DNA of 44,534 bases, filler included, from Jimgerdemannia flammicorona (lineage: Eukaryota): assembly GCA_003990765.1 (NCBI GenBank). It is 2 parts of 2 records of this genome, joined end to end, with 100 filler letters (N's around TTAATTAATTAA, not from the genome) between each part and the next. Parts side by side here need not be neighbours in the genome. Positions count along the whole stretch, not along the records: positions 22,321 to 44,534 come from RBNJ01001317.1; 1 more part is not named here. One strand, written 5' to 3'. This document shows positions 12,805 through 44,534 of the stretch, one piece after another. Below the pieces are notes generated by a model, which was given only the letters and a program-made list of their open reading frames with translations, searched no databases and had not been told where the DNA came from. The stretch's first letter is position 1. Each line of letters begins with the position of its first letter. Position numbers and translations under genes: made by a program.

Positions 12805-13081
12805 AGTACTGTAGATCTTGAGAAAAATAAAGAGATACAGAGAAGAATAAGAGATACTAGAGATTAGTATACTATAGTAGAAAAAAGAAAAAGAGTAGTC
12901 AGAACTATAGTGGCAGAAAGAGAAGAGATATAGTTTTGATAAGAGAAGTTAGATAATAGATCAAGTAAGAGACAGAGATCAGAAGAATATAACTAGAAAT
13001 TTTAAAACTAAGTAGATAATTAAAGAAGAGAGAAATTAAAATTAAAAAAGAGATAACTACTAATATAACTGATAGAATATC

Positions 13082-13659
13082 TATATATAATAAAACTATA
13101 TATTGATAAAATTAATATATTGCAGATAATCAAGATGACTATCAGCCCTAAGTTCTGAATGTTTGTAAGGAAGTACTAAGTTCCAATTACCTATTGTGGT
13201 AATATAGTCTGAGTATCATTTTCAGATTCTAGTACTGATAACAGTATCATACTTGTATCCTAAGTTGATCAGCTTGGAATTGTTAATATGTCAGATTCAG
13301 GGATTCTGTGATAAGAATACTGCTTTGTTCTTATATTTAGAGAAAGCAGAGCTTTAAGCTTTTCTTCAGCTTTCAGACTGAGATTACAACATACTCAGTA
13401 CAGAGGGTATTTATAGGTTTAGGGCTATAGTATGCTGGGTGTATCCATACACAGTTATACTATATAGGGTATCTATGACTGCTAGTTGGAATTTCCATTG
13501 GAATTTTCAGTGGCTAAAATGTTTATTCAAAAATAGATACAAGTTCTCTTCATGTAATGCGGACGATTTTGGCGATTTCCTAATTAGGAATGGTTAGGCG
13601 GATTTGGCGGATTTGCAGATTCTGGGATTTGGCGGATTTGCATGTAACGAACCGTTACA
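13082..13659 (-). mobile_element. Probable solo LTR
   Basis: The right end reads tgtaacgaaccgttaca (TGTAAC... on the minus strand). There is a minus-strand TATA (gggtatttatagg, ~13405) and short ggatttggc repeats. The flanks atatc (13077-81) and gtatc (13660-64) fit a 5-bp TSD with one G-to-A change. Confidence 0.55.
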
Positions 13660-15180
13660 GTATCGAGAGATAAGAGAGTAAGATGATATTAATTACTAAA
13701 TTAGAGGAGTTAGTGATGAGACTCTTTTTTTTATAAATTAGTATTAATATAGATAATTTTGATAAATTTTCTAAAACTTAAGAGAGGTGCTGAGAGTAAT
13801 TAGTGAGAAGATTGAAAAGGTTGAATTTTTGAAGTTTATTTCTTAAGCAGAGATAGTGAAGATCATCTTTATAGAAGAGAAGACTTGGATAAGAAGTTGA
13901 TAGTTAAAAAGATAAAAATATAGATAATCTAATATTTGAGATAGAATTTAAGAACTATAAGACTAATGGTAAAAGAAGTATCTATTTTAAGAAAACAAGA
14001 GATAAAAGAGATAATAAAGAGATAGTAGATTTTAGCTTTATATTTTAAGAGGATACTAAGTTGTATAATATCATCTGTAAGGTGATAGTGAGATTAGAGA
14101 TATAAAAGATAACAGAACTAAAGAGAGACTGACTAGAGGTTATTTAGATTATAAGTCAGAATTATAAGATATAATAGCAAAAGAAATCTAAACTTAAGAA
14201 AGATAAGTTGATAATAGTCTTAAAGAAGAGAGAGATTATAAAGAGGATATATCAGAAGAGATAAGAAAGATTCACACAGAACTAGGTCTGAATTCAGATG
14301 AAAGATATGTAAAAGAAAAAATATAAGAAAGATAGGCTGAAAGAAATTACAAAGAGTGATAGAGTATATAGTAACTGAAAAGAGAAAAGATCTGAATAGT
14401 AGATAATAGAATAGAGAAGATAGAGAAAACTGATAGTTCTATTTCTCAACTAAGAGAAATTTTAGATTTATAGTATATACTAAAGAAGAGTGAGACAATA
14501 GTAAGAAGAAGTAAGAGAATAGTAACTATTATTATTTAAATCATTTAAATCATTTAGAGAGAGATATAAGTTACAATTATATTTTTTTATAAAAAGTAAT
14601 ATATTTGATAGCTTTACTTTATTATCTTAAGTATACTTTATTAGAGATAAATTTATCTTTTATTTATAATTACTTTTATTAAAATTTATTAAGTTTTAAG
14701 TAAATAGTAAGCTAGAACTCATCTGACTCTAAAAGGTTGAAGAGAAGAAAGCCTGAGCTAGAGCTGTTCAGAAGATTTATATCTACTATAAGCTATAAGA
14801 GTATTAAAGAGTTTAAGTAAATATAAGAAAAAATAAAGAGTATAAAGAAATAGTATACTATAATAAAAAGAAAAAGAGAGACAACTAGACCTATAGTAAT
14901 AGAGGGAGAGAAGAGTATAGTATTGATAGAAAAAGAAAGTTAAATTATAGATTAGATAACTAATAGAGATTAGAGATAGGGAAATATAACTAAAATTTCT
15001 AAAGCTAGATAGGTGGTTTCAGAATTAGTAGAGATATAACTAAGAGAGCAACTGATAGTATAATTGGCAAAAGGGAGAAGATTTCATTAGTAGTTAGATC
15101 AGATAAGCTAATAGTATACTCTTTTTCTATAAGTTAATATTTATATAAACTATCTTGATAATTTTTTAGATCTAAAAATG

Positions 15181-15399
15181 CAGTGACTTCTAAAACTGGT
15201 CTAATGTTTTATTACTTTTTACTTTTCATTTTTTAAAATATAAAAAAAAAAATAGAAAAAAATGTAAAAATATGAATTATTGTAGCCCTAAATCAGCAGC
15301 TTCTATAGATATTAATTTTATCAAATTTAAGATTAATTTGGTGCTTATATGAATTTCCAAAATAGGTTAGCACATTGGACCAGTTTTGGGACATCACTA
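15181..15399. mobile_element. MITE-like element with ~27-bp terminal inverted repeats
   Basis: The left end cagtgacttctaaaactggtctaatgt matches the reverse complement of the right end, tagtgatgtcccaaaactggtccaatgt. The interior is AT-rich. A TSD is not evident. Confidence 0.65.
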
Positions 15400-15909
15400 C
15401 TGATGAATGTTTTTTTTCTCATAGACTATCAAAAAACCAGCACATAAGTGTGAAATTTTACATAATCGTTCTTTTGACCCCTTTCTACATCCTCATATTT
15501 TTTTTTTTTTTTTTTTTTTAAACCATTTTTTTATTTTTTAAAAAAATATTATCAGTTGCTAAATTTAGATATATTGACCTCTCTTTGATAGATAACATTG
15601 CAATACTCCTTTCTAATACAGATGATAGATGTTTTGCCAACATCAATCTATTTAGTAATTTTATATATTATCTAAGAATACTTTTAGCTCATAATAAGTC
15701 ATAGATCATTTACCAGATAACTGATAGTAAGGCTATATGAAAGTAGTGAATGGTAAGAATTGTTAGGAGATCTTGAAAGCACTGAATACTCAGCAGAGAG
15801 AGATAGATGAGCTTGAGATAGAGAGGAATCTAGATGTTACTAGTAATATAGTGAATATAGAATTATAGAGTGAGTGTTTATTCTCTAAACATTATTCAAT
15901 ATAAATAGT

Positions 15910-18900
15910 ATAACTAAAATCTTATCTTTAAACATCAATGGACTATAAGGTAAGATGAGATATTAGAATATTTTTAGCTAATTGAAGGGACTAGATATAG
16001 ATCTGTTCTTGCTGCAGAATATAGGATATAATATAGACTTTGATATGCTGAACTGAATAAAAGAATAAGGAGAGAGGTGACTGTATAGTAGGATCAGGTG
16101 GATATTTTAGTTAGGAAGAGTAAGAAGGATATTAGGAATATTGGATATTGGGGGAGTAGGGTAGTGTGGGGAGTGTGGAGGTAGCTAGGCTAGAGCTCTT
16201 TAACTATTAGGTTATATTATTACTCAGTGGAGAGGAGTGAACAATTAGAGTAGATAAAAGGACTATGAGATGTAGATATAATAGTAGTAGAGGAGATTGA
16301 TTGTCTGGGTGATAACTTTAATATAATATGGAATAGGTAGTTAGACAGAACTGATGAAGGGAGGAGGATAGTTGGTAGGTAGAAAACTAGAAGAAGATTG
16401 AGAGGCTGGACTCACTGATAGATACTGAGCAACTTAGATAGAGAGATTACAGAGTCTATACTTACTAGGTAGCAGGGCTGAGTTTATTGATTGACTGAAT
16501 CTTAACTGCTAAGTACTGGGGAGCAGATGTCTGGAGTTTTTTAGAGACAGTTTGGTGCCTATAATCAGATCACTAGAGATTGTTGAGTTACAGAAGATTC
16601 AGAGGAAGTGAGAAGGAGCTTGGATATTAGTATCTGAATACTTTATTACTAGAGAAATTCTCTTTGTAGGATATATGTGTAGAAGACATTAGCTCTAGGA
16701 TTTTGAGCTAGAGAGTATAGGGGCTGAAGATTGGAGATCATTAGTGACATTTGAAATCAGATGTCCAGCAGTTCTGGAGAGAGATAGGGAGAGAGAAAGA
16801 TGCTCAGAGGAGGAGTTATTTAAGGTGGGCTTTCTGGAGGTTGAAGAGGCTATTGAAGAAGTGGGCAGAATTACTGAATAATAGAAAGAAGAGAGATTGG
16901 AGGGTTCAGTAGATCTAGCTAGAGGTGGAGAAACTGAAGGAGTTGCTGAGACAAAAGGAAGAATTGTAGGTTAAGAGTATGGTAGTCTAGCTGAGATAAT
17001 AGGACTTAGAGAAGGGGGAGAGACCTATAAAGTTTTTTTCAAGGCTACTTCAAGTGAGAAAGATAAGGCAGTAGTAGGAAGGAGTGTTGAATAAGATAAG
17101 AGAGATGATAGTTGGAACTCTAGAGATCTTGGACCAATTGAGAGCTCAATGGAGACAATTGTAGAGTAAGAAGGAGAGAAGAGAGGATGCACTGGACATT
17201 GAATGGCATCTGGTAGATTGGTACCTAGATCTGGCAGAGGGCTTAGATAAACTTAGAGTATCTGTTCAAAGAGAGGAGATCTGTAGAATATTAGTAATGA
17301 TGAGTTTTGAAATAGTTCCAAGAGAGGATAGTTTATCTTGAGATTTCTAGAAGAGAATGGTGAGGATAGAGGTGGCTTTGGAGGAGATGATATAGATATA
17401 TAATGAGATTATTAGCTCAGAGACCTAGATTGAGGGACAGTACTTGGGTCTTATAGCTCTATTATATAAGAATAAGTAGAGAAGAGAGAATTGGAAGAAC
17501 TGGAGACTACTCATACTTCTGAATATGGATTGCAAGTTAGTTATAAAGATTTTGGTAGCTAGGTTGTAAGGAGTGACTCAGCAGATATTAGAGACAGAGC
17601 AGAGGGGCTTTATTAGGGGTCAGTTAATAAGAAATAGGACAGTATAAGTCCATAGTATCATTGAAGGAGTCTGTACTATCAGGGTCAATGATTAGCTAGT
17701 ATTTCTAGATCAGGAGAAGACCTATGACAGAGTCAAATAAGTGTAACTAGAGATAGTGCTGAAGTATATAGAGATTCTCCAAGGGTTCAGATGATCTTTA
17801 ATTAGTCTGTTAGAGAGGAGTCAGGCAGCTATTATAGTAAATGAGTATAGGAGAGGAGTCTTTTCCCCTGGGCAGAGGAGTACTACAGAGAGATTCACTA
17901 TTATCAATTTTTTATGCTCTCTCTCTGGAGCCTTTATTAGACAGGATTAGATGTAGGATGGGGGGGTTGAATATTCTGGAAGTAAACTAGAAGATGGGGG
18001 TCTTTGCTGATAATATAGTAGTAGGGCTGAACTTTATAGAGGATATGATAGTATTGAAGAGTATAGTGGAATAGTATAAGAGATATTCAGATACTAAGCT
18101 TGACTAGTATAAGTGTGAGACTTTGGTATTAGGTAGAGAAATAGTAGGAGGAGATATGATTAGAACAGTTATTCTAGTAGGAGAGGTAGTCTAGTACCTG
18201 GAGATCTACTTTTGATATATGATTCTCTATTATCTTAGAAATAGTAAGAGCAGCAGCTGATTGAGTGGAGTAGTACTCTTCTGGAATGAGACAGTCAATA
18301 TATCTCTCTAGTTAGAAGGGTGATGGTGTTAAATATATATTAGCTATCTAAGTTATAGTATCTGGAGTATCACTTAGACTTCCCAGTATTGGTGGTCAAG
18401 AGACTATTAAATATAGTCAGAATATAGATTTAGATGGAGTGGTAGAGTCAGATTGGATGAGAGGTGATGATATTATCAGTAGACTGAGGAGAGCTAGATC
18501 TGGTGAACTTTATCAAGTACCTATACTACTTGAGGGTATGGTGGCTGAAGTAAGCTAGTAAGTTGAGAGATCAAGAGTAGGTGCCTCTTATACAGAGAGT
18601 GTGGGAGGTATAGTTCTCTCTCTGTGACATATTTGGTGACTTGCTCTCTCTGGTAGTACTAGAGGAGAGCTGGAAGATCCACTATAGAGAGTTCTAGTAG
18701 AGAGTAATTAATAGTGCTTAATAAATTGGCCTCTAGTAGTAGAATAATGAGGTAGAGGAGGACTGGAGACCCCAGATGTAGAGGTGGGACTATCTTCTGT
18801 TAGAGAGCATGCCAGTAGATGATTTTAGTTTAGAGGATGATATGAAATATCTTTGGGAGTATGGGAGAGATTTGTAGCTAGAGACCTAGTAAAGAGTATA

Positions 18901-19635
18901 AATCAGTAAAGAGTAGAACTAGAATAGTATTTAGTCTTAGAGCAAGCAGGTGGTGAGATAGATTCCCCTCAAGTTCTGAATAGCATAGTAGAGGTTCTTG
19001 TAGCACAATGTGATGTTGAACTATAGGTTAGGACATTTGGTGGAAGGAGGTGTTCTGGAGTATGAGAAGTATCTTAATATTGAGCAGAAGAGTAGAGTGG
19101 TATAGATATCTGAGTATTGGCTGAGAGAGTGTGAGGTTATAGGTGACTTTAGAAGACTATTGAGAATTAGTTGAAAGTATATCCATCTGGACAGATGGTG
19201 GGTAGGAGGTGGGGTGATCTCCAGAAGAGGCTGGTGAGAGAGATTAGAGATGAGTAGTTAATTATTGAGTGGGTTCTGGCTATTTGGATTGAGCTTACCA
19301 GATATTAATTATATATATTTGAGAATGATCAGCAGTTAGTACTTAGAGTATGAGTTATGAGATAGGAATAATTATTGTTGGACCTTTTGAATAGTTAATA
19401 GTAGGAGTGAAGATCTAGAGAGGGACTCTATAGAAGGCTTATAGAGAAGATTTGCAGACAGAGTAGAGAGAGGATTGAGATCACTGGAGAGATGGTGAAT
19501 TTTCAGAGAGATGAGTAAGAAGAGAGAAGCTCCTTGTGGGATTGGGTGAGGAATATGTTTATACATCTATATTAGTATAATATAGATTAGATAGAAATAA
19601 AGTAGAAGTTTAAGTAACTAAAAAAAAAAAAAAAA
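15910..19635 (+). mobile_element. L1/Tx1-like LINE ORF2 (APE endonuclease + reverse transcriptase + C-terminal Zn domain), heavily mutated, with poly(A)
   Basis: Decayed motifs occur in the correct order: ILSLNINGL..DLFLLQ (~15920-16020), GDNFN (~16308), SDH (~16565), WRLLILLNMDCKL (~17502), FLDQEKTYDRV (~17702), RGVLQRDSLLSIFYALSLEPLL (~17875) and GVFADNIVVGL (~17997, the FADD motif). It ends with aagtaact plus poly(A) at 19620-19635. Confidence 0.88.
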
Positions 19636-20120
19636 TTAAATAAATAAATACTAAGTTATAATGTAATAGATATTTAATCTGAGAAATATAGTATTTTTTT
19701 TATTTTAAATATTTGATCTTTTTTAAGTTCTTAGAGTTCTTAACAAAATATAAAGATTAGTAAAATTAAAGTATATCTATCTGTAGACTTATTAGTTCTT
19801 TTATCTCTTTACTTTTAAACTATTTAAATTTGAGGGTTATTTACTCTAAATACTGAAAATATTTATATAGATTTTGTAGCTATATAGTGTCTAAGTTATG
19901 ACTCATTTCTATAATATATATATAGATTTCTTACAATTGTAAGTTTTTTATATAAGTAGAAAATTTCTTTATATTATATAGATTGAATAACTACTGACTA
20001 GTACTCCCAATAAATTGAATCAAATTGAATTTGACCTAAATTTAATTCAATTTGATCAAATTAAAAGTTTAATTTGATTCAATTTGAATTAAATTAAAGG
20101 TCTAATTTGATTTGAGATTT

Positions 20121-22220: not shown

Positions 22221-22320
22221 NNNNNNNNNNNNNNNNNNNNNNNNNNNNNNNNNNNNNNNNNNNNTTAATTAATTAANNNNNNNNNNNNNNNNNNNNNNNN
22301 NNNNNNNNNNNNNNNNNNNN
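22221..22320. other. Assembly gap with artificial six-frame-stop linker TTAATTAATTAA
   Basis: 44 N + ttaattaattaa + 44 N. Confidence 0.95.
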
Positions 22321-22661
22321 CTGACATGTCACGTTTTTTTTTTTTTTATACCAAACATCTCACAATTTCACACATGTCTTACTACAAAACCGAAGGCATG
22401 CATTACGTACAAACGGTTTCCAATATACCATTACTACGACCAGTTTCCATATTCCAAGCGCCAGCGACCCTCCGCCTTTCATATCAGCGTTTAATTTCCC
22501 ATGCCTCACGAAACACTGATCCGTTTCTCCGGATCAACCTGCGGGAAAACGGAAGCAAAGTACGGTTCCAACGTGTTAGAATCAATTTCGTGGCTTCGCA
22601 ATTGCGAAGCTCGAAACGGTGGGGTCCGCGCCGAAAAGGAAGAAGCGAGAGAGAGGAGGAC

Positions 22662-26331: not shown

Positions 26332-29300
26332 TCAACGGCGCGCCTTCCCCTTCCCATTCCCAACCACGCTCCGCCTCTTATTAGCGGTCTCAGTCCCGCC
26401 CCCCCCACTCCGCCCCCTAATGTCCACCGCGTCGGGACTGATCATGCTCCTTCTCTTGTCAACAGCCTCGTCCCTGGTGGCAGCGCCGGCCCCGGGCATA
26501 CTGCGCTTTCTATCGGTCACATCCCCCCTGCTGATATTGTTAACAGCCATCTCCAGCTTTCCGATTCCCAACAAGACCTCCATCCGCTCGAGCAGTAACC
26601 GATCATTCTCTCTTCTAACCTCATCCTCGCGACGTTCGTCTTCCTCGAGGCGCTCGCGCTGGCGCCCATGAGCAGGCTCGTCCTCGAAGTAGATGACGGA
26701 GGGGAACCAGTCGCGACGGCGGTACTGTCGTGCGCCGAAAAGCCACAGGGCCTCGATTTCGGCGATCGAGCGAACCATCCAGACAAGCCATGCGGCCTCG
26801 GCGTGATCGTAGCGCAAGGCCAGGAAGTCGTTGAGCAGCGTAATAATGAAGTTGATGATCAGGAGCACGAACAGCATTCCGAATAGGATCAGCAAAAAGT
26901 TCGCAAGCTGGAGCGTCGAGTGCGGTATCCTGGTCTCTGACACGACGGGCTTCGCCGTAGGCTCCGCTGCCGCCTCCAGGGCTTCCCCTGCCGTGGTACC
27001 AGCCGGCGTGACCGCCAGGGGCGCCGACTGTGAGGAAATCGGTGTGGACGAACTGCTCGCCTCTTCTGTTGGATCGGGATTAATCTCGTCATCTTGCCAG
27101 AACGGCTGCATGGACGAGAGATCGCCACGCATAAAGAATATGACGTTCTTCATAGCTTGATCGAAAGACGCGAACGGGTTCCCCTGTCGAACAATAGAAG
27201 TGGCTGCGCTGATGCTTGTCGCCTGCGGATATCGCGGGGTTGGCATTGGCGGAGGCGATGGGCAAGGGGGGATGACGGGCTGACGAAAGTAGGCTTGTGG
27301 TGCGGTGATGGTGATGTTGCCGAAGAGGATGCTCCTGTTGGGGCCCGAAAAGGTGGCGTTGATGGTGCCCGTGAGAGTCTGGTTGAGTGCAGTGGTGTTG
27401 GCCGAAATGGTGTTGTTGGCGACCGCAGCTGCTTCCAGAAATTGGTCGGCCAGCGAATGTACAGATGGGATCGCCGTGGGGACCGAGTTGATTGTGAAGG
27501 TAGGGAAGGTGGTGGTTCGGGTCGGCTGGGTATCTTTGAGAAGGATGTAGAACGCTTGGGAGAAGGCGAGGACAAGAACCGCAAGGAGGACCAGGAAGAA
27601 TAATAGCGTTTGGGTGATATTTGAAATACGGTAGAGGAAAATTCCAAAGGGTTTGTAAATTCGGAGATGTAATAACTGTCGTGGAAAGGCAAGGAGATTT
27701 GGAGAATAGGAGGTCAATAAATAGCGAAGAAAATAAAATGCGCGCTCCTTTTTTTTTTTTTTTTTTTTTTTCCCCGATCGCAATCGACGAAGCTACCGAT
27801 ACTCACGATATTCAACCACAGGAACAATACGCTGATCACCACCACCCCGACTTCAACCTCTCCCTCCACCCCAGCGATCATGACCGTCGCCACCCCCAGC
27901 GGCAGCAGCCCGGCACCGATAAGTCTGATAGAGTTCTCAAGCTTATGCACATAACCGCTGACGCCGCCGACGAGCCTGACCTTTCTAGCCTCCTGGACGA
28001 TGACCAATATGGCCATAACGAGGACGAGTGCCCTGAGAGTTGCGGAGACGGCGGAAGGGGTCGCGAGCGTGACGGTGACGGCGTATACGACGAAGTAAAC
28101 GAGGTAGAAAATCCAGAGCGCGAGGAACCGGGTGCGTGCAAAGGCGCGCCACTTGAAGGAAATGATGGGATTGGAGACCGAAGGGTGGCGGAATAGGAGG
28201 CCCGAGTTGGTATTGGGGTCCAGGGCCAGGTGGGCGAAGAGCGAAGTGGTGGGCGTCCACCAGCGGACCTTGGTGGAGGGCGTGGTAGTGGTGGTCGTGT
28301 GGGTGGAGAAGACGGGGAGCGTGGTGGTGGTCGTGGATGGTTCCGTTCGGCTCGTCGGCGGTGGGGCGTTCGGAAGCTGCTCCGAGTAGTCAAATAGCTT
28401 GGGCAGGGGAAGCAGGTACAATCTGGCAGGGTGGGAGATGTTCTTGCCCATTCTTCCAAACGACTTGGACGCCTGCACGTGATAGTTGTCTTTGGTCCAC
28501 TTGCCTTTCCCCTTGGCCCTCCTCGATGCGCCGACCATCTCGTCCACGGCGAAGGCGTAATTCTCCTCCTGGGTGGACCTCTCGAACCTGCCGTTGACGA
28601 CCTCTGTCCTGAGCAGCTCGCGCGGGGTTTCCTTGGACGTTGGAGGGAACCAACTGACGTGCTCTTCCATCAGCCTATCGACGTAATCCGGGTAGTTGAC
28701 GAGCAGGGCGGGGAGGGCCTTGACGGCGGTGATCATGTACCCTGAATGGACAACGGCGCGGTTGGCCATGTACTCGAGCAGAGCCCAGACGATAGCGGGC
28801 CGCTTGAGGGCAATTGCGAGGGTGAGGGCAGACTCAGTGGTGTGTGGTGGCGTGGCGCCGAGGACGGAGATGGAGAAGGAGGGCGAGCTCCTAGCGACAT
28901 GGAAGCACGGGATGTACTGCCCCGTGGCGAGGAAGTCCAAGACCAGCGAGTCCCAGCCGAGATACAGCCAGTCCTGCATGGGGTACAGGCCGCCGTTGAC
29001 GACGGAGAGGACCTCAGGGTGCTCCTGGACACCGCGCTCGATCATCTCGCGGATTCGCTTCACGACCCAGAACCGGCTCTCCATGTCGTCAGCCTTCTCG
29101 TCCGCGGACCCGTCGCCGTCTTCCTCGACCCGCCCGGTTCTCACGTCCCTCATGAATTTCACGGCCCTGCATGCGTCCCTCAGCGTCCTCACCGACACTT
29201 CCCTGGTCCTGTCGTTGCGGGTCTCGCCATCGTCCGCGGGTGGCAGCTTGAGCACGACGTCCTTGTGCCCGCTCTGCGATAGCCGGACGCGCAGTATGTA

Positions 29301-30552
29301 CTCCCCAGCGTCCGCATTCTCCGTATCGATCCAGATCTGTTGGATCAGCTGGTAATTGTTAATGGGCGCGTTCTGGTTCACGCTTCCGGCCGTCGAAGGC
29401 GGAACGCTAAGCCCCCGCCCGCCGGGTGGAACCGACGCGCGCGGGGACACGGGGGTAGTCCAAATGTACTGTAAAGTGACGTCGTCATTCCCACCCATGG
29501 CTGCGGCGGCAGCGGCACCATTTCCATACTCCTCACTTCCATCCTCGTCCTCACCATCATTCCAACCCCTCTCCCTCTCCCTCTCCCTCTCCTGCGCGGC
29601 CGCACCACCGAATCTCCCCCCGCCAAAGGCCCACACCTGAATGGAATAGTCGCCGGCGATGAGCACACGGTTGTGATCGAGAAAGTACGCAAACACGTCC
29701 GGCGTAAGGCGGTTGGCAACCCAGGGCTCCGGGTTGATGGCTTGGGCGGAGTGAGCGAAGAAGATCTTGTGCTCTGGGTGCAGTCCGGAGGCCAGCACGA
29801 TGAAGCGCTCGGTCGGGTGCGAGAAATGGTGTCCGGGTTGCAGGCGGACGAGCGTCGCCGGGTGGCTTTTTGAGGCGGCGCTGAGGCCGATCCCGAGCGA
29901 TGAGGTCAAGGCGGAGGGCATCAACGGATGGATCTGCAGGGCCTTGCCCAGGTTCTCGACGAACCAACCACCATCGGGGCTGCCGAGCTGTGTGGCCCAA
30001 GGGACGATACTTGCGCGCTCGAGGCCGTGGTGCTGGAACGTACCGAGCAGGGTGCAGCTGTAGGGTTCCCATACCTCGGTGGCGATGTCGCCGTACGGGG
30101 TTGTTCCGAGTGTGACGAGGACGGTTGCGGTGGCGCCCGTGCCGGCCACGGTGGAGGATGAGACGAACTCTGGGTGGTCGGTGTCTGTGAATCCGATGAA
30201 GTCGATCTTGTTGACGACGACAGTGCGCGAGAGGGGGATGCCGCCGCTCTCGACCAGGTAAATGGTCAGCTCAGAGGGAATATCGCCCTCCAGCGGGACC
30301 GTGTAGACGGCCAGGAGGTCGCCGGCGTTGGACAGTGCAGTACGCACGAAGACCTTGCCGTGGCGGAAAGCACGGTGGTGGTCGTCGTGACCGAGCATCA
30401 CGCGCGCAAAAAGCTGTGTCTCACCCTGCCCCCCCCCGCTCACGACGACGCCGGAGCGAAGGCGTGCAAGGAGGTCCGTAGCGGTGCTGGTGACTGTTGG
30501 GTCGGCGTTGCCGTTGGTTACGGCATCTGGCGTCAGAGTTATGGGTGCAGGG

Positions 30553-30594
<42 letters not shown>

Positions 30595-32063
30595 GTTGCC
30601 GTCGTCGTGGTGTCTGTTGACCCGTCCGCGCCGAGGGTGATTTGCCACAGGCTGAGGCTGGCGTAAGGCTCGAGCCAAGCGATGGACATTCCGAACCGGA
30701 GGGAAGACATTACGAGCTGGAGCTGGTCGAACGCATTGACCCAGGCGCCGCCAATGTCCTGCGTAAGGAACGCGAGGTCGAGCTTGTAGAGGAGTGTCCA
30801 GTTGGTGGTGGAGAGGATGTGCACGTGCGTCCCGTCGCAGACGCCAAGTCGCGCGGTAGGCAGAAACTCGATGACCCCGTACAAGTTTACGAAGGACTGC
30901 GCTCGGATCGGGCTCTGCGTCTCGGTGGAGAGCAGCAGGAACGAGTCGGCCGGGTTCGGCGTGGACGGACGCAGGGCGTACTGGCCGGGAACCTGACCAC
31001 GGATGGTGTTTCCGCTAGACGCGACGATGCACGACGAGAGCGCGATGAACTGACCATAGTTGGATACGGCGAGGAAGGCCTCCCCGGGGGGCAGGATGCG
31101 TCCGCCCGTACCGCCGTCACCGGATCCAACGAATGAGCTCTGGCGTTTGAAGAAGCCCGTGCGGTAAGTACCGCGTGCTTCGAGTTTGCCGAGGGAGCGG
31201 CCAGCGCCGGTGGCGGTTACGCCGGGGCGGTATACCCATGTGATGACGATGCCGTCATCGCGGCTGAAGCTTGCGACAGTGGTACCATCGGGGGAGACGG
31301 AGACGAGATCGATGTTGGAGTGGTGGTGGTGGTAGAGGCCGAAGAATTGTGGGGGTTGCGACGCGAGGCGGTTGGAGGCTGGGTTGGAGCCCGAGAGCAT
31401 GGGGGTCTCGGAGGTGAAGGAGAAGTCGGACTGCGGGGTCATGATGCCCGGAGAGGCGAAGGGGAGCGTGTCGGCAACGGCTTCGAGCGTCAGGCTCGCG
31501 GCGAGGTCGGTATCGTCGCGAAGGGTCGAGCGGTACTGGTTCGAAGACAAGCTATCGTGACGGATCCCGGATACCTCGGTTTCTGCAAGGTCGCGGTTGT
31601 ACGTGCTTGGGGATTTCTGTGCTGGTGGAGGTCGTGTCATGGCGGTGGGGTGGCTTGTGCTTCCCTGGTTGCTACTGCTACGGAGGTTTGTGGTGCTGCT
31701 GGATTTTTGGAGTGTCTGGAGGAACTCGGGCAGCCGAAGTTCAGGGACGGTGCCGGGCTCGATGTGCAGGTCGCGGAACTTTGTGCGGTAGTTGAGGGCC
31801 TCGCTTGACGAAGAAGCGAAGGCGTTTGGGCTAGGGTGACGCGCGACGGCGAGGCCCGAGAACACGGGAGTTTGGGAATCGGGCGAAATGGACAGGAACT
31901 GCGGGGCCAGCTGTGGGGAGAGGGCCAGAGGCGAGACGGCGTTGCGTACGGGGGGTGGGGGCAGCGAGCGCGAATAGGTAGGCGGGCGTCGCAGCGGAGG
32001 GGGGGGAGGGGGAGGGAAGTAAGGTTGCTGTTGCTGCTGGTGTTGATCCTTGCCGTCGGCCAT
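26332..32063 (-). CDS. Large TRP-like cation channel with a beta-propeller-like N-terminal region (2 exons, about 1866 aa)
   Basis: Exons 32063-27807 and 27675-26332 are joined by intron 27806-27676 (GTGAGT...ACAG), giving FLWLNI|LLHLRIYKPFG. Motifs include pre-S1 FKWRAFAR, TM helices, S5 LAFSQAFYILL, pore NPFASFDQAMKNVIFFMRGD, S6 LIINFIITLLND and TRP-box-like WLVWMVRSIAEIE...DWFPSVIYF. Confidence 0.9.
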
Positions 32064-32779
32064 TGTTGTGGGTGGTGGTGGTTAGTTCCCGCGACTCCCA
32101 GCTGGACAGCAGAGGAACACGTCTTGCGGGCTTGAGGGTAAGTCTTGTGACGTATCAGATCAACTCATTTGCATCACCTTGCCTAAATCAGGAAGCCACA
32201 CAGCCTGATCACTTCCAGCCCTTCGTTTACCCCCCAAACCAACCATGTGTCACAATGGCGCACAACGATATCGCGGATCCCTTTCCATATGTGGTCGTTC
32301 GTTCGGAATGTATGCGTCATTATTATTGGACGTCACGTCTTTATTGCTTCTTTGGTATCAAGTCGCGTCAAACATTTAATGGGAAAGAAATATCGGAGGG
32401 AGCGCGAAAACAAAAATGTCAACCCCCCGAAATGACGCGTCGGTTTTCGACGACGGAATCAATCAGCCCAAACTTAAGCTGTGCGAGGCGGCAAAGCAAA
32501 TACAAATCAGTAACCTTGTGGAGATAGGCACCGGCGTTGGCCCGAGGGGCGTGGTTATGCATCTCTGAGGGGCTGAGTAGTAGGTCCTCTGTCAACATGG
32601 ATTATATCTCTATTGCCTGCTCCTTCATTCCAGCCACGGTATAGTGCGCCAAGTCTATAATCGACCTACGTTACACAAGTCGAAAAATAGCATCACATAA
32701 GATGTGACGTAACTACGAATAAAACCCTTTAGAAGTTACCGTATACATTTTGAGGATGGCATCCTGAGGAATACAGCAA

Positions 32780-34982: not shown

Positions 34983-35840
34983 TCATATGACATTGCTTGG
35001 TTGAGCCTTGTGTTTGGTTTCACTCATACATTCATAGGAGTAGTGGCCTTCTTCTCTGCAGCTGTAGCAGGTACTTTTCTTCTTGTCTGAGGTGGCAGCA
35101 AACTTCTGAACAGGGCGGCGATCTCTTCCTCGGATTTCCTTTACCACATCTCCCAGGTGGGCAGTCATTTTAGCAAACCTTTTGGCAAGTTTCTCCATAG
35201 GGTCGCTGTTCTTTTGCTACTCGATAGCTTTTGGCTGAGGTGTGTTTCGATTGATCATTGTGGTGGAGATCACACTGGTTGCCTTGGGTGCCTCGATTCT
35301 GACTCCTGTAACTCTCTCCATTGTATGGTCTTGTGGGTATCTGGCTATCCAGTATCGCTGAGCATAGGTGACCCTTTGTGGCAGATCCAGAATCACTGGT
35401 GATGAGCAGATGGTCATGGCTATTTCTGGATGGACTCCTTTCATGAAGGTTGCTTCAGCTACTTGATCTCGGATAGCAGTAGTATAATCTGCAAGGATTA
35501 TCTGATATCGAATTCTGGTATAGAATGTGTTTGGATCCTCACTCATTCCTTGGCACGTTGTATTGAGCTGATCCTTCAGGGCTTGCTTGATCTTGTCTGT
35601 ATAATATGTGTTTCGGAGCCAGGTCTTCTGTGCCATCAATATAGCATCAGCATCATTTCCTGCATGGGTTGCGGCTGTGAATGCTGCTCTGGCAGGGCCT
35701 CATAGGCTGAAGGGCATGAGGGCTACTTGCTGTGCTGCTGTCAGAGTCCTTACAGCAGCATACTGCTTGAAATCATCAATGAAGGTGATGATTGATTCAT
35801 CTGAGGTATATTCATAGAATACTGGTGGTCTCATATCCAT
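34983..35840 (-). mobile_element. Ty3/Gypsy-like gag pseudo-ORF with CCHC zinc knuckle
   Basis: A single frame from MDMRPPVFYEY through QGMSEDPNTFYTRI and ATFMKGVHPEI to CYSCREEGHYSYEC (CX2CX4HX4C) is broken by two in-frame stops (TGA ~35700, TAG ~35217). pol is absent. Confidence 0.85.
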
Positions 35841-35938
35841 CTTGTCTGGGTATTGGAGCTTGGTTTGTATGGTTGTTTGGGTAGTGGTGGTTGTTCGTTG
35901 TTCAGCTTGAAAGTGAGAGATTCGTCTTGAATCATCAG

Positions 35939-36359
35939 CCAATGGGCACCAAGTTGTAACATAGCAGATGCTTACTCTTGAAAGTATGTCGGATTTCTGT
36001 ATCTTGAAAACTTGACTGTTCTGACTCTCGCAGAGTCTCTTGAAGTGGCAGGGGAGGATGGATGAGTTCGAAGTGTATCTGCCCACAGGCTTATTAGTTC
36101 CTTTGCTATCTCTTTGCTTTTGAACTATTTCAATCTGAGATTTATTCACTTGAAGATACTGGGTTATTTATACAAGTTTGCTAGCTATGGGAGGGTGGCT
36201 AAGTAATAAATGAGTCATTTGGACTTTGTTGAAACATTTGGACAATGTCTAAATACTATACTAAATTGGAGTATTCGATTTGAATAATGTCTAAAATTTA
36301 GACAATGTCTAAGAATTTAGACAATGTCGAAATTGAGGACTGCTAACTATAATGCTATA
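35939..36359 (-). mobile_element. 5' LTR (35955 to about 36359) and primer-binding site of the Gypsy-like element
   Basis: The minus strand reads ...tgttaca (LTR end) act TGGTGCCCATTGG (PBS-like) just upstream of gag. A TATA-like tataaata lies at ~36165 and gacaatgtc repeats at 36241-36328. Confidence 0.75.
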
Positions 36360-37189
36360 CTACTTTGGGAATGGGTGCAATCAAGTGTCTATTCCCTATT
36401 TCCTTCTTCCAAATCTGGCTGTACTATCATAATATTCAAATATCTTCTTGAGAGTGTTTTCTCATTCTTCCTTATTTGGCTATATATTAATAACAATTAT
36501 ATATCTGAGAAGTTTGAGCTTAGTTATTCTATTCTAATTGAAATATATATCTTTGGGTTTGACTTTACATTTCTCAAGAAGTTTGGTATAGTGAATTATT
36601 GAGAGTATATCTTAAGCTTAATTAGATATTATATTATTAGATAGTAAGTATAGGTAAGTAGATAGATTGAGTGAATTTTAACAGTTTGACTTATATATTA
36701 TAGTAGTGAGCAATAAGTATAAGTATGAGTATAAGTGATGAGCATGAGTATAAGTATAAGTAATAAATATAAGTATGAGTATGAATGATAAGTATGAGTA
36801 TAAGTATGAGTAATAAGTATGAGTATAAGTGATAAGTATAAGTATGATATAGTGATATAGTGATAATTTTATAAGTATGAGTAAGTATAAGAATAGAAAA
36901 GTAGAGAGGGTAGAAGGAGTATTTTTATATTAATAAATAGATACAAAGTAAGCTTGGTCAGATATATACTACTTATCAATATATACTCACTATACATATA
37001 CTAAGCTTACTATATATGCTTACTATATATGCTCACTATATATATATATTGAACTTACTACATATATTTACTACATATATACTGAGCTTACTATATATGC
37101 TAGTTATAATATAAGTAATTAATTCTCATTGATAATATATTGATAAAAGCTTGGCCAGACATATACTACTTATCAATATAAGCTCACAA

Positions 37190-38600
37190 TATACTATTAT
37201 ATTAGTTACTAAGTCTTTCAAATATATCAGATTCTCTTCAAGGTATATCTCTTAGACTAATCACAAGTTTATTATAAGAAAATTCTTATTAAAGTATCTT
37301 CCCAAGGTCTTATAGTCCTCAAACTTCTTATATTTAAACTGTCTTATTATCTCTTAGATTGCTTATAAGAAATTGAGAGTAAGTGAACTTGACTGACTTT
37401 ATTTCAAAGGAAATAAGAGAGGTATTTATACAAAATATAATTCAATAGTTGCTAAGATATAAAGCTAAATATAAATTTCAATAACCAAATAAAATGCTGA
37501 AACACAGAAAACTGCTAAGTTCCAGTGTTGATACAGATGATTGCACAGGTTCAGGATACTGGTATAATTTCAGTAATATAAGAAAAGAGTACTGGAATAA
37601 TTCTGAGTCATATAAGATTAAAATACTAGTAGAGGAATAGCTGTTATATAGAAAAAGAATACTGGCATAATTCAGTATAACTAAGAGACTTAGAGCAGAA
37701 TATTTAGGACTATGAGTGCTTCATTCTTATCATCACTGAAGGAGATGAGATCTATGAATATTTCAGTCTTATCATATAGATCATGCATTTTGCATATGTC
37801 ATATAGGATGATATCATCACTGATGACATTATCACATTTGACAGTGGTGGAGAGAGTGAGGATCTTCATTCTATGAGATTCTCTTCCACAAAATAAGGGA
37901 CAAATATAGGATCTTAGAGACATCTAATCTGAATGCTTGAGTCTTAGAATACTGAGATCAATTCTTATAGAAATTGATCTGAGTTGTCCTGGAGGATGGA
38001 ATGTCAGAAGTCTTCTATTTTATCACTATTGAGAGTAATAGTGGACTGGGCTTCTATAGCTACTCTGGCTTTTAGTACATTGATATAGTAGGCTGACAGA
38101 TCTCTGAAGTCTGAGACTCTAACATACTTTAAGTTGAGAATTGACCATAGTGCATGCCTGAAGATCTGATGAATCTTCTTAGCTATCCTTGTTTTATATA
38201 TATCTATAGGAGTAGTATCTTGTAACTCTTAAGGGCTGGTCTGTGGAAACTTCTGATAGAGAAGGTTTCTTATTTTATACTTCTGCCATATTTGAAGGCA
38301 TTCAGTAGTAATAGTGATCCTTGTTTCCATTTCATGGCAGTAGAGAATAAAGTGATAAGGATCCCCAGTGCCTAGGTTAAGGCTAAGAGTTCTTCTTGTA
38401 TGAGTCCTCATAGCTCTTCTGATGTCTTGAAATATCTTTTTTTTGACTGAGGGGTCTTGGTGGTTCCTTGACCTTGAGGTTTGGTGAGTAGTAGGCATTC
38501 TATTTATAGTAAGTCTTTGAGCTATTTTGGGATTGATGGGTCTTATTGAGTTGCTACTACTGCAGTTCCTTAATCCTTCTTTTATATTTCTCAAGATACC
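37190..38600 (-). mobile_element. Possible second LTR (about 37190-37534) with an adjacent decayed unidentified reading frame
   Basis: A tgttgataca end and a gaggtatttataca motif resemble the other LTRs. A long stop-interrupted minus frame runs 38600-37690. No PPT or TSD was seen. Confidence 0.3.
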
Positions 38601-39235
38601 TGTACTATAGTTACAATAACTATCTCTTTCCAGTACTATTTGGATTATACAATCTTTGGAAAGTACTTATAATATTGTTCTTAGAGAAAAGAGACTAGCA
38701 ATATGGTGACTGACAGACAACCTGAGGTATGTACAGAGTAGAGCAGCCTGAGCATATTTGACTGGCAGCATGTAGAGAGGGGCCCTGGTCTGGGGGAAAA
38801 TATGAGAGATCTGCTGGCAGGAGAATGCAGAAGAGAAGGAAGCAGTGATAGAGGACAGGGGTCAGGGAGGGCAAGCTTTACAGAGATGATAAAGGGGAGA
38901 AAGCAGATATCTGGGCTAAAGGGCTGATTGAGGAAAGGCAAGGAGATGGAGAAGGTGGCAGTACAGGGGGGAGTAGCTCTTAGTAGTGAGGGCAGTAGTG
39001 TTGGGGGTATAGTGACTGGAGGGAATGTGATGGCTGATGGTAATGGGACTGCCAATCTGAAAAAAAATCCAAATATAACTACTGATAGCAGGGCTAAGAA
39101 GATGGGGCTTGGATGGCAGGGGGATTTGGTAGATAGTGTGATGGGCTTAATGGTGGTCCTATTACTCAAGAAGTTGATCTCAGAGTTCATGATTACTTTA
39201 TACTTCCAGAGCCCAGCAGTGATGGCAAAAATGAT

Positions 39236-40443
39236 TAGTGCTCCGAATGAATGGAGTTGATCTGGATGAGATTCGATTCAGATTCATCATGTAATGGATT
39301 TGAATCAACTCAGATTGGTCTCATGATCTGATCCAGATTGATCCGGATTGATCTGGATTGATCCATCCAGATTGATCCATCTGGATTGATCCATCCAGAT
39401 GATCCATCCAGATGATCCATCTGGATTGGCCCATCTGGATTGATCCATTCGGATTGAAATCTTTGGTGACGTCACCCTTTCTTTTGTTTATTTTGCTCTT
39501 GTTTTTTTTTTCTGCCGTACTTTGGTGACATCACCCTTTCCTTTGTTCCCTCTCTTTTTTTTGTTCTTTTTCTTTGTTCTTTCCTACCACATCACGAGCA
39601 AACAAAACAGCAGCCCTTAATTCGTATGTTGGTCCAGTCTACTCATTTTTCACCCTGCAATGATCATCAAAAGAGAGAGTATTTGAGGTGGAAACACACT
39701 CTCTGCTGACAATGTTAGATTCTTTCTCATATAGACAGCACACAAGCTGCTCATCGAGAGCCAAAGGGATGATAGCGGTGGCAGTGGCGATGGCGATGGC
39801 AGGGATGAGAGAGAATTCCGGCAACAACTCATAGCGGCCCTTCAGACCTTGGAATTCACAGACCTCACAGCTATGTATGTGGCAGCCTTTTTGGAGCAGC
39901 CGATAGTAGATGTAGGTTGCTTACTCAGCCGCCACTTGTTTACTTGTGTTTATTTATTTAAACTTCCCCAGTATGACCCAATTCATCTCATGCTTTTCTT
40001 AGGGTCCACAGCTCTACGGTGAGATCTGCTGACTTTATTTGCAATATCTGGTCAAGATGAAGAAAGGCTGGTGGATGTTGTGGGGCATGCCTTTGGTGGC
40101 TGAGCTGTTGAGTCAATACATCGTGTAGTGGAGGTCTCAAAAGGAACAGAAGTAAGTCTTCGTGAGCAATTCTTGTGCAACTCATCGGCATGCAACTTGT
40201 CGGCATGCAACTCATCAGCATGCAGCTCACTCACTCATGCTCTTTTTCTGAAATACCCATCTCCATGTTTTATTTAATTTCATTTTTACATGGTCTCTCC
40301 CTAAAAAACACCCACACCCACACGCAACCCACATGCAACCCGTCCGCATGCAACCTGCCTGCCCGCATGCAACCTGCCCACACGCAACCCACCCGCAACC
40401 CGCCTGCATGCAACCTGCCCACACGCAACCCGTCCGCATACTT
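39236..40443. mobile_element. Probable non-autonomous DNA element with subterminal repeat arrays
   Basis: It starts tagtgctccg, followed by a gatccatc(c/t)(a/g)gatt array (39325-39456). It ends with a (c)gcaaccc array (40310-40440) and catactta. The TIR match is weak. Confidence 0.5.
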
Positions 40444-41697
40444 ATCTCGGTCCCTCAGATCAGGGCTCAGTTCCATTGGAAAGGAAAGTTCAAAGTTACC
40501 CAAGTTCAACCATGTCCAGCATCTGATCAAATAGAGAAATTCGAGGGCAAGATGTTCAGCATGAGCAGTACCAGCATCATCATCAAGGCTTGGGGGTCTA
40601 CATCTAAATCAGAGCCAATCGTACTCAACCAAGGGGTCTATTGGCCAGCAGGAGTAACCAACAATGAAGAGAACCATATCTTTATTAACGAACACAGAGA
40701 GGTGGTTACAATGGTGGTAAGGAACCTCTTTAGCGACAAGCTTCGCCACCACATCAATGAGATTTGCGAGGATTGCATCAAATACTGGGTAGCAGGGAAG
40801 AGGGGGTGAAAAAAGCAAGGAGGGGGGGTTTGGATGAATTGGGTATACTGCAATATAGGCGAAGGGTGGGTTCCGAAATCCCCTGCACTCATCTTCCTTT
40901 TTTTTTAACTCCTCCCCAGATAAATCAAACTCTTCACTGATATACTCTTTTTGATACAATTCCAGGGATGCATAAGATTCTATACCCCTACCGGAACTTT
41001 AGAAGTGCCATTGAAGAGCAAACTGCGTGCGAGCACGACACAGCCTGTACAGCGATGGCGGCTATGATCTGGGATTCTTTGAGCAGATTGGTAGAGCGTA
41101 TGGCAGGCCAGCTTGGTGGTGATCTTGGCGCAGCTGTATGTACGTTCTTGGCGCAATTTAGCATGCCGTATGAGGTGAGAAGCTCCACTTTTTTGGGGTG
41201 CTACAGCCCGGGGGGTTTCTGTGGCCCAGGGGGTTTCTGCCCCCTAAACACAAAAAGGACTGACCAGTTGCCATCCATTTTGGCAGGTTTCCAAGCTGGG
41301 GCTCCTGGGGCTGGACCAAGGGCAGACATCTACCAGCACAGCCTAGCAGTATGAGATCCTGGGCCAAGGGTTCACCCAACTGTATGCTCATGTCACATCA
41401 GGATATGTCAGGCGCAACCTTTTTCTGCCCACACACACAGACAACAATGTCACCCCAGTAATGTTTTACATCCCAGAAAGGAAGGGCCCAACCTGGGAGG
41501 ATAGCGGCGGAGTCTAGTATGACCTCACCTATGGTTTCGGGGTCCTGTTTGTGGCCAACACGGCCATCCTATTCCAACCACATGACCACCATGGCACCGT
41601 CGCCTTCGAGGAGAGCTCGGACACAACAGTCATCACACTCACAACAGATGACAGGCTCATCAAGGCCTGAGACCGGTGGGTGGAGCAGTTTTTGTGA
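40444..41697 (+). pseudogene. 2OG-Fe(II) dioxygenase-like (TET/JBP-like) gene, spliced and disrupted
   Basis: Introns lie at ~40866-40965 and 41175-41286 (GTGAGA...ctgac...GGCAG, phase 0). The last exon reads VSKLGLL...TA*QYEILGQGFTQLYAHVTSGYVRRNLFLPTHTDNNVTPVMFYIPERKGPTWEDSGGV*YDLTYGFGVLFVANTAILFQPHDHHGTVAFEESSDTTVITLTTDDRLIKA*. This gives HxD (41434-41442), a GG-aromatic strand and a distal H (41590), the DSBH iron-binding triad. Confidence 0.65.
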
Positions 41698-41919
41698 GAG
41701 TTAGGCAATCTTTCATGAGGGTTAGGCAGCCATTTTGTGTGGGTTGGGCAGTCTTATGTGGGGGGGAGTTGGGCCGGGCGCCTCTTATGTAGCACTAGCT
41801 TAGCCATTATGCAGGGCCCTACCGGCCCCTCGGCCCTGCTCTGTAGTGCCGCCGGTGCAGTGCTACAGTGCAGGGCCAGGGTGCCCATGGGACCCAAACC
41901 GGCAACTTCGACCGCCAGA

Positions 41920-42360
41920 AATGCCCTCTGACCGCCAGAAGCACCCTCCGACCGCCAGAAGCACCCTCCGCCCTGGACTCCTTGGCAGCTTGGGGCTGTT
42001 CCTATACCGCTGGCAGAGGGCTGCAAATTTTGCACGCTCCCTCCGCCTGCCCCACCCACCAACTGACCCTGCCAACTGACCCGGGCACTGATAGCTTGGG
42101 GCTGCTCCTCGCTGCTGGCGGAGGGCTGCAAATTTTGCATGCTCCCTCTGCCCCCCCCCCCTGACCCAGATACTTGTGGCTTGGGGCTGCCTCTTGCTGC
42201 TGGTGGAGGGCCACAAATTTTGCACACTCCCTCCGCTGACCCGCCCACCGACCCGCCCACCGACCCAGGCACTGGCAGCTTGGGGCTGCCCCTTGCGCAC
42301 CCCCTCCGCTGCTGCCGCCGCCAACTCCACCCCAATTTGGCCGCAAACTCCAGGCCAAGT
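41920..42360. repeat. GC-rich dispersed tandem repeats between the dioxygenase-like gene and the transposase
   Basis: gaccgccagaagcaccctcc-like units occur three times. Units with gcttggggctg...gagggc(t/c)(g/a)caaattttgca...ctccctc occur 3-4 times. Confidence 0.8.
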
Positions 42361-42446
42361 CCTCAGGTTTTTTTTCCTTTTTATTAATTTGAAAGATATT
42401 AAATATTCCACAAGGCCAACCAACTTATCTGTAGACCCACTGAATT

Positions 42447-44534
42447 TTAGTGGCCTGAGCCCCACTAAGACTTCAGACACATATATGCCCAGATTGTCTC
42501 AGCATTCAGCACACACCTCTTTGGGGCAACGAGGTCCACCCCATCTGAGAACACCCGCTCGACAGGAGCGCTGGAGGCAGGAATCGCCAGGTAGTCCCAA
42601 GCCATACCACACAGGCTGGAGAAGTCCGTTTGACACAGCTGCACGCCCTGGTGGGTAGAGCGGTGGTTAGATTAGTGGGTTAAATTGGTCCAACGCCTGC
42701 CTGACAACCCACCTTCTACCAGTTGAGCACCTCCATGCCCTCCAGCAGGACCATGCAGTCACTGGCAAGATAAATGGTAAGTTTGTCTATTGACGGCAGC
42801 TCTTCCACTGATGGCTCCCTCTTCCTCTTTCTGCCAAAGTAAATGTGGGACAGGAGGGATCCCTTGGCATATTTATCCAGACTTCAGCCAGAACCTTGCG
42901 GCAGTGTGTAGTTTTTCCGGTACACTTCAATTATGGCTTACTTGGTTCTCTCAATGAAGTGCTGCTCCCAGCCCTAATCTTTATGGTATTGTAGCTTTAA
43001 GCATGGGTCCAGCACTGTTCGAAGAAAAGGAGAGTGAGTTTTTGCAGGGTTTCCTCTGTTTTGGAAGGGGCAATGGCCACATACTGACATCAACATATCT
43101 GTACTGATTGAGTATACGGCAGTATCTGTTTGGGTGTAGTATTTTCTAAGCTTGCTTAGAGCAACCACCATGGCATCTCTCTGATCCGGGCTTAACCGTA
43201 AATCACTGCAACCCTCCAGCCTGTCCTCAAGCTTGTCCTCTAGCTGGTCAATCAGAAGGTTGTATACTGGTATCGCAGAGCTTATTGTCAGGGTCATTTG
43301 TTTGACTATATCCTTCGTACAATTGTCAAAACACTGGCAGTTATATGTGGTGAGGTGTTGCACTATGTGGAGGCAGACAAAATGAGTGTGGAGCCAGGGC
43401 AACCACCACTTACTTCCAAAACTCTGACAACATTCCTAAGTATGTCCCACTCACTTTCACCTAGAGTCTCGGCCCATATTTCCTTGTCGGCAGCCATCAT
43501 TGAATTTATTGGCTTTTTTTTTTTTTTTAAAATTAAATCTTCCATCATCCGAAACAGTTGCTTCAGCCGACCGAAGAAAAAAAAAATGTATACTACAGCA
43601 AACTCCAGCATGTGCTGGATCATTGCAAATATTGAGTTCCAATGCATACAGATGTCCAATATGCTCTTTCGGGGCTAAACTGATTGCCCTACACTGCATA
43701 GCGAATTTGTCTCATCATTGTGGGAATGATCAGACCAACACAACCAGTTTGTACAGCTTGGAAATTATACTCAGGGCCTCTCCTCTCTCAGATGTTTTGT
43801 CTACATACATAAGATAGTCCTGAACAGCAAGGTTCAGTACGTGGGCCTGGCATCACACACGGTAGCTTTCTGCACTGAAGGCCATGTTTTCCTGTTTGAG
43901 GCTAGCTGCTAAACCTTGGAAAAATGTTGAGTTGTTTGTGGCATTGTCCATCGTAATGGCCAAAATCTGTACTTGAAATATTTGGTTGACAAATTTATGT
44001 GAAAATAAGTAACCAATAAAATCTGGTTTGGTTTAGGACCTCTCTCAAAATGCCGACCTGATGGCAAGCCCCCCTTTTTTACCTTGGTGGTGATCCCAAG
44101 CTCCTGGATACAACTAATAAAAGCATCTGCAATGTTGTCTCCAGAATGAGGGCCAGCAAGTTTGACAAAGTCAAGGGTGAGAGATTTAAGCTGCCAATCA
44201 AGGTCAATCCAATGACCGGTAATGCCCAGAAATGAAATTGCATTAGGGGATGTCCATGTGTCAATCGTAAATGAAATTTTGCCTGCCGAATTCTGCTTAT
44301 TGAATATGAGGTTAAATTGGTGAGCTCTTTTGTATAATTCAGCTTGCAAAGGTCATAGTGCTGCCCTTATTTTACCTGTAGTGTCTGGCGGAGATTGTCG
44401 TGCTCCTTCCTATAGGCCTCCAGGACATCTTTGCGAATAGTATCGGCACTTGGCAAATATAAATCATGCTTGAGGAGGCCAAAGATGCTATGCAATTGAT
44501 CACTCTTGATGGTTGTGAATGGCTGGTCTGTGCA
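42447..44534 (-). mobile_element. hAT-superfamily (Ac/RICESLEEPER-like) transposase, intron-containing and disrupted; 5' end outside the window
   Basis: Motifs include KISFTIDTWTS, FLGITGHWID, GPHSGDNIA, ILAITMDNATNN, CQAHVLNLAVQD (CxxH), DICMHWNSIFAM and VLDPCLK. The hATC dimerisation region reads MAWDYLAIPASSAPVERVFS...LNAETIWAYMCLKS. Several premature stops are present. Confidence 0.92.

Follow-up and report, generated by a model that had tools for sequence, protein, structure and literature searches.

The right end of a 44,534-nucleotide stretch of DNA from the fungus Jimgerdemannia flammicorona (assembly GCA_003990765.1; the whole stretch is called the window below, and its positions 22,321 to 44,534 come from RBNJ01001317.1) carries a decayed plus-strand gene that faces a hAT transposase. 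The explanation that we favour, with a probability of about 0.55, is that this region is one copy, now dead and altered by transitions, of a DNA-transposon unit that exists in multiple copies. In this unit the transposase would lie tail to tail with a gene of four exons that encodes a divergent TET/JBP-like Fe(II) dioxygenase. A previous reading made from the letters of this DNA alone (the sequence-only reading) had already proposed that a hAT element carries a TET-like enzyme as cargo here, and we describe below which parts of that proposal stand.

A decayed four-exon gene

Direct reading combined with homology places a spliced gene of four exons over 40057-41670. The homologs used were proteins found in our searches (P0002, P0004, P0009 and others, described in the next section) and a metagenome locus, L001. 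The gene is longer than the sequence-only reading had assumed, as its ATG is at 40057 and not at 40444. The gene and its neighbour comprise the following features.

40057..40151, plus strand: exon 0, starting with the ATG at 40057 and containing an in-frame TAG (40126-40128) within a W-W pair; direct reading
40152..40463, plus strand: intron 0, with GT...AG ends; direct reading
40464..40864, plus strand: exon 1, with an in-frame TGA (40807-40809) and a 1-base frame discrepancy at its 3' end
40966..41174, plus strand: exon 2 (GMHKILYPYRNF...), placed by tblastn with P0004 and P0009, with intron position and phase as in locus L001
41287..41670, plus strand: exon 3, core of the predicted double-stranded beta-helix, closed by a terminal TGA (41668-41670)
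41671..42464, no strand: spacer; direct repeats, GC-rich and 85-105 nt long, occupy ~41980-42300, and 42369-42410 is AT-rich
42465..44534, minus strand: hAT transposase remnant, its frame split over several frames and its N-terminus beyond the window end

By direct reading, exon 0 is followed by a GTAAGT donor at 40152, and its ...VxWRSQKEQK stretch, which the window reads as V*WRSQKEQK, resembles by eye the W-W-containing N-terminus of P0004 (...KWWQEQRHLKAK). Intron 0 is filled at ~40160-40440 by a tandem repeat of the GCATGCAACC type (repeat families D1, D3 and D7). The exon 1 frame 40534-40863, read through the TGA at 40807, matches residues 92-160 of P0004 (BLASTP, E 9e-9), and tblastn aligns both P0004 and P0009 to 40965-41174 and 41290-41679. 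At the donor of intron 1 the window has G|GGTGGGT where G|GT... is needed, which puts the frame off by one base. Direct translation of exon 3 gives ...LPTHTDNNVTPV...GGV*YDLTYGFGVLFVANTAILFQPHDHHGTV..., with the HxD at 41434-41442 (H 41434-36, D 41440-42) and the distal His at 41590-41592. The joined gene model aligned locally with residues 92-337 of P0004 at 74/255 identities; this model was built with an earlier exon 0/1 boundary and has 365 codons, counting the four in-frame stops and the terminal one.

The intron positions are supported by a second source. The relative at L001 shares both downstream positions, the first of them in phase 1 inside the Gly that precedes M-H, and P0004 and P0009 read uninterrupted across both. 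As the same introns recur at L001 while these two proteins read straight across them, the introns are real. To judge from these sequences, some family members, at least, are spliced or intron-free, and we infer that P0004 and P0009 derive from transcripts. The window copy itself is dead and without function. The sequence-only reading was right on the two TAG stops in the last exon (41344 and 41515), which are in frame, and on the PTHTDNN...HDHHGT motif of this exon. It was also right that the copy is pseudogenised, but the breaks are more numerous than it had noted: four in-frame stops interrupt the gene (TAG 40126, TGA 40807, TAG 41344-41346 and TAG 41515-41517), in addition to the frame discrepancy at the donor of intron 1.

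A very rare protein family

A HMMER search with exon 3 against 1.84 billion representatives returned seven proteins at E <=0.001, five of which count as real relatives: P0002 (79% identity, E 2.8e-58), P0003, P0004, P0005 and P0008. A match to P0002 at this level shows that the open reading frames (ORFs) are not due to chance. The other two, P0006 and P0007, are long bacterial repeat proteins and were set aside. Word-indexed searches added P0009 and four fragments (P0025-P0028), and the family amounts to ~10 clusters among 5.8 billion proteins, all of them from metagenome or Logan assemblies and without informative names. A profile search of the 5.8-billion-protein set with alignment A4 returned only P0004 and P0002. 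P0004 is a full-length relative of 374 amino acids, and the P0005 cluster has 28 members, which lie on different contigs. The gene family is therefore very rare and looks multi-copy.

The HxD...H pattern pointed out by the sequence-only reading is the conserved core of this family. In the alignment the first His is present in 11/11 sequences, the Asp in 8/11 (the remaining 3/11, in decayed copies, have Asn) and the distal His in 9/9, so that the family motif takes the form H[VT]D, with H-V-N where copies have decayed. Scans of metagenome loci found none for the window's own subfamily and two near-identical ones, L001 and L002, for the other subfamily. These two lie on contigs of different records and are 99% identical over 2.7 kb; they differ by 28 substitutions, 23 of which are transitions (going from L001 to L002, G>A 11 and C>T 6), and the TET-like gene of L002 has gained new stops.

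Decay by transitions

Contigs from public sequencing runs were placed on 38500-44534 at >=80% identity, four runs in all; no RNA run is among those listed as containing this DNA. In the soil-metagenome run X1 nearly every difference between window and contigs is a transition: there are only 38 transversions, compared with A>G 182, T>C 158, G>A 130 and C>T 127. Of the 40 difference places with the best support, 35 have A or T in the window and G or C in the contigs, and the inferred C-to-T changes fall in CpG (16), CpA (13), CpC (6) and CpT (1) contexts in the 36 transition rows. Over 39-44.5 kb the CpG observed/expected ratio is 0.33-0.45 and the ratio (CpA+TpG)/(ApC+GpT) is 1.45-2.02. At three stops of the gene, relatives have W: P0002 at the place of the stop at 41344, P0002 and P0003 at 41515 and P0004, by eye, at 40126, which indicates that these three stops are TGG-to-TAG changes.

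Possible linkage of the gene to the hAT transposase

On the minus strand, 42465-42671 encodes the C-terminal dimerisation domain of a hAT transposase (PF05699, Dimer_Tnp_hAT; E 1.1e-8, 35.1 bits, cut-off 21.4), whose stop codon is at 42465-42467. The ORF at 43909-44352 contains FTIDTWTSPN, which we take to be a motif of the hAT catalytic-core type. By direct reading this transposase has VLNW*K, with a stop at 42713-42715, in place of the W-W of hAT proteins. The two genes are convergent, as had been claimed, but their stop codons are 794 bp apart and not ~750 bp. The GC-rich repeats said to lie between them are also there, in the form of the direct repeats listed above, and their number differs among metagenome contigs, as seen at joints.

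We consider it moderately probable that the TET-like gene is in the same element as the hAT transposase, which would then be its carrier. Run X1 provided 2153 short contigs (265 at >=99% identity, 679 at 95-99%, 888 at 90-95% and 321 at <90%), and their summed depth is ~10 over 38702-39105 and rises to ~250 from 39308 onward. Of the eight bins over the gene, six have 111-245 and the two on the intron-0 tandem repeat have 156 and 28; over the spacer the depth is 69-131 and over the hAT 179-341, even though the hAT played no part in finding this run. The stretch 39.3-44.5 kb is thus multi-copy as a whole. The depth of 28 coincides with the drop over the tandem repeat of intron 0.

The contig cover as a whole hints, without proving it, that everything from ~39.25 kb up to the window end belongs to a single repeat unit, with the following candidate left end.

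39217..39460, no strand: candidate left end of the repeat unit (a hint only), containing CAGTGATGG at 39217 and, at 39335-39445, a cluster of GGATTGATC motifs

Lying beside the depth step, CAGTGATGG and the GGATTGATC cluster could be a terminal and a subterminal region. An 18-nt inverted match between 37721-37738 and 39217-39234 was tried as a pair of terminal inverted repeats (TIRs) and rejected, as its arms face away from each other; moreover, the DNA around 37721-37738 is decayed and AT-rich and has a similar word close by.

Several results weigh against this linkage. Summed contig depth is not copy number, and no contig among those listed spans from gene to hAT. Elements of the hAT type are enclosed by short TIRs and 8-bp target-site duplications (TSDs; 7 bp in hAT7), and around the gene in the window no TIR pair and no TSD were found, the right end of any hAT element being outside the window. 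Furthermore, L001 and L002, the only relative with flanks, show no hAT within 1.7 kb downstream. The L001 ORFs gave no match in Pfam, and the one directly downstream of its TET-like gene (2320-2598, plus strand) has a decayed homologue at window 36441-36599 on the minus strand (47% identical over 53 amino acids, E 9e-8). The cargo status proposed by the sequence-only reading draws on adjacency and on continuous multi-copy contig cover, while no TIR or TSD and no hAT beside L001 and L002 were found.

The explanation that competes best with the one we favour, although we find it rather unlikely, is that gene and hAT transposase are two separate repeats lying side by side, the gene belonging to some other element or standing alone and the hAT not being its carrier. 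The missing TIR and TSD and the flanks of L001 and L002 would be as expected under this explanation; the downstream ORF of L001, with its homologue at 36441-36599, hints at a different shared neighbour, and TET genes frequently move between transposon superfamilies (Kojima 2025, PMC12730594). On the other hand, contigs cover gene, spacer and hAT with no well-supported common loose end at 39.3-44.5 kb among the best-supported loose ends listed, and the CpG depletion and the TpG/CpA excess are alike throughout 39-44.5 kb and unlike the DNA to the left.

Relation to TET/JBP dioxygenases

That the family of the window gene is TET/JBP-like seems to us probable. The best evidence points to a 2-oxoglutarate (2OG)-Fe(II) oxygenase fold nearest to Tet-like families, and it comes from the ESM Atlas and from a match, by eye, to the PE type of transposon TETs. 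The Atlas contains P0002 letter for letter, with a model that has a predicted template-modelling score (pTM) of 0.59 and a predicted local distance difference test value (pLDDT) of 0.69. In its structure table for P0002, 7 of the 10 rows are 2OG-Fe(II) oxygenase-type clusters by Pfam family or automatic name and the other 3 are unnamed, at template-modelling (TM) scores of 0.54-0.63 for this ESMFold model of pLDDT 0.69. Tet_JBP is found in 28% of one of these clusters, 2OG-FeII_Oxy_3 in four clusters, one of them named HIF prolyl dioxygenase, and 2OG-FeII_Oxy_5 in two, with one cluster named prolyl 4-hydroxylase 2OG dioxygenase. In the search by features, the cluster at rank 3 for P0002 bears the name 'Tet-like 2OG-Fe(II) oxygenase'; 72% of its members carry PF20515, and it scores 0.91 with 178 features in common. 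The top cluster for P0004, at a score of 0.96, has PF20515 in 15% of its members, and Tet_JBP appears at rank 11. PF20515 (2OG-FeII_Oxy_6) and PF12851 (Tet_JBP) are thus the nearest named families in both Atlas searches and have the HxD...H triad in common with the window family. A literature search on PF20515 found no paper.

The comparison with transposon TETs uses Kojima 2025 and sequences of its Table S1. In that article the PE type is reported from Pezizomycetes and Agaricales and was placed in TET/JBP through the similarity of AlphaFold DB models to CMD1, NgTET and CcTET, the author's own HHpred E-values being 1.4 and 19; according to its Figure 7 legend, only H, D/E and H are conserved in all TET types (PMC12730594). 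Between PE-type sequences from Tuber, Morchella and Sphaerosporella (Table S1) and the window family we recognise five collinear motif blocks, by eye and not by computation: an N-terminal N[YH]I..D...E[IV]V..V.RN; G...GY[ST]; a FAL.WNM-like helix; the metal-binding block; and GG.F...YG..V....N.....F....HG[ST]. The two groups are also alike in having no Arg directly after the distal His and in being very far from Pfam Tet_JBP.

TET/JBP enzymes, which oxidise 5-methylcytosine or T in DNA, bind 2OG through an Arg of the strand that follows the distal His. The columns after HG[ST] in the family alignment hold no conserved Arg at this usual place, as the sequence-only reading had cautioned, and an Arg ~18 residues further on (..TTD[DE]RL..) is present in the window subfamily only. 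With the canonical residue absent, the enzyme may use a co-substrate other than the one of classical TETs. The absence of this Arg is one of the points that speak against a TET/JBP assignment, and others come from the searches and models. In Pfam (HMMER, E <=10) neither the window exons nor P0002-P0005 matched any family, PF12851 and PF20515 included. Three profiles run against PDB sequences gave nothing credible, one of them finding only designed repeat proteins at E >1. The AlphaFold2 models of P0004 (7-row alignment, mean pLDDT 38.3) and P0009 (13-row alignment, mean pLDDT 35.9) were unusable. The Atlas itself describes its results as leads and not as tests, and the likeness to the PE type is a comparison by eye over passages of Table S1, in which the window family has HxD where HxE is the hallmark of the PE type (PMC12730594). 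The TET/JBP-like nature put forward by the sequence-only reading is thus favoured by the Atlas and by the PE-type likeness, but it finds no sequence match in Pfam or PDB.

The protein might instead share the 2OG-Fe(II) oxygenase-type fold without being a DNA-base dioxygenase, and either have another substrate or be a non-catalytic relative. This would suit the missing profile matches, the missing Arg and the prolyl hydroxylase, 2OG-FeII_Oxy_3 and 2OG-FeII_Oxy_5 clusters that reach the same TM as the Tet_JBP-containing one. We regard it as improbable, because in both searches the language-model features put Tet-like PF20515 and Tet_JBP closest among families with a name, because the motif order agrees by eye with that of PE-type transposon TETs and because the gene, like those of transposon TETs, lies within multi-copy repeat DNA.

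Other features of the window

The homologue of the L001 ORF at 36441-36599 is riddled with stops, lies 3.5 kb upstream of the window gene, has no Pfam match and sits 5' of gag-like ORFs with a zinc knuckle. The L001 ORF could be a second shared neighbour of the gene family or part of a common retroelement. The last part of the gag-like ORFs (34983-36167, minus strand) is a zinc knuckle of the CCHC type (PF00098, E 1.4e-5), and these ORFs are probably the remnant of a long terminal repeat (LTR) retrotransposon; to their left, the DNA at 33-35 kb has 19-25% GC and no CpG.

An AT-rich block at 13001-20000 has a CpG observed/expected ratio near 0. Its GC skew is strongly positive (+0.32 to +0.56) in all but one of its seven 1-kb bins, the exception being 15-16 kb with +0.13. 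Only one of the strands is poor in C, a pattern to be expected if C-to-T hypermutation acted on one strand of a repeat. An uninterrupted frame of 1455 amino acids at 27714-32081 on the minus strand (61-64% GC, with hydrophobic C-terminal segments and no Pfam match at E <=0.01) looks like an intact host gene among repeats. An ORF at 4436-5050 on the minus strand matches DUF4246 (PF14033, E 2.3e-19), and a run of N at ~22270-22360 (88 in the window) was read as an assembly gap.

Discussion

TET/JBP genes have been described on 11 transposon lineages of Pucciniomycotina, Agaricomycotina and Pezizomycotina, whereas Mucoromycota, Glomeromycota and Chytridiomycota go unmentioned in the main text of that work (PMC12730594). 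These lineages include hAT7, of which the same article reports 20 families that carry PU-type TETs in Puccinia; their TSDs are 7 bp long. The concept of a TET-carrying hAT is therefore already in print, and the novelty claimed by the sequence-only reading was overstated. The Puccinia elements and the window locus are alike in combining a hAT transposase and a TET/JBP-like gene in C-to-T-hypermutated fungal repeat DNA. They differ in their enzymes, since the two PU sequences that we compared by eye resemble the window family less than the PE type does, and hAT7 elements make 7-bp TSDs, while at the window locus, which runs off the window, no TIR or TSD was found. What may be new here is the enzyme family, which resembles the PE type but has HxD, escapes profile searches and is very rare, together with its pairing with a hAT.

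On the basis of its conserved residues, an intact enzyme of this family would bind Fe(II) through the HxD...H triad. It would oxidise a modified DNA base, for which 5-methylcytosine is the best candidate, although we give oxidation of 5-methylcytosine by an intact member slightly less than an even chance. By analogy with what has been proposed for other fungal TET-carrying transposons, such base oxidation could oppose methylation-based silencing and deamination of the element. A further possibility, which we hold unlikely, is that the family is a fourth type of transposon-borne TET/JBP-like dioxygenase, with a PE-like scaffold, HxD and no canonical Arg, captured by a hAT in a fungal lineage outside the three reported. 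Were this so, the enzyme might use another co-substrate, as CMD1 does with vitamin C (PMC12730594).

Transposon-borne TET/JBP enzymes are thought to free DNA transposons from cytosine-methylation silencing and from C-to-T hypermutation. To the best of our knowledge, no fungal transposon TET/JBP enzyme outside the CcTET group has been assayed so far. The locus described in this work adds to them a very rare family that profiles do not see, and possibly a new pairing of enzyme type and transposon superfamily. Because of its unusual cofactor-binding residues, an intact member such as the 374-amino-acid P0004 would be worthwhile for biochemistry.

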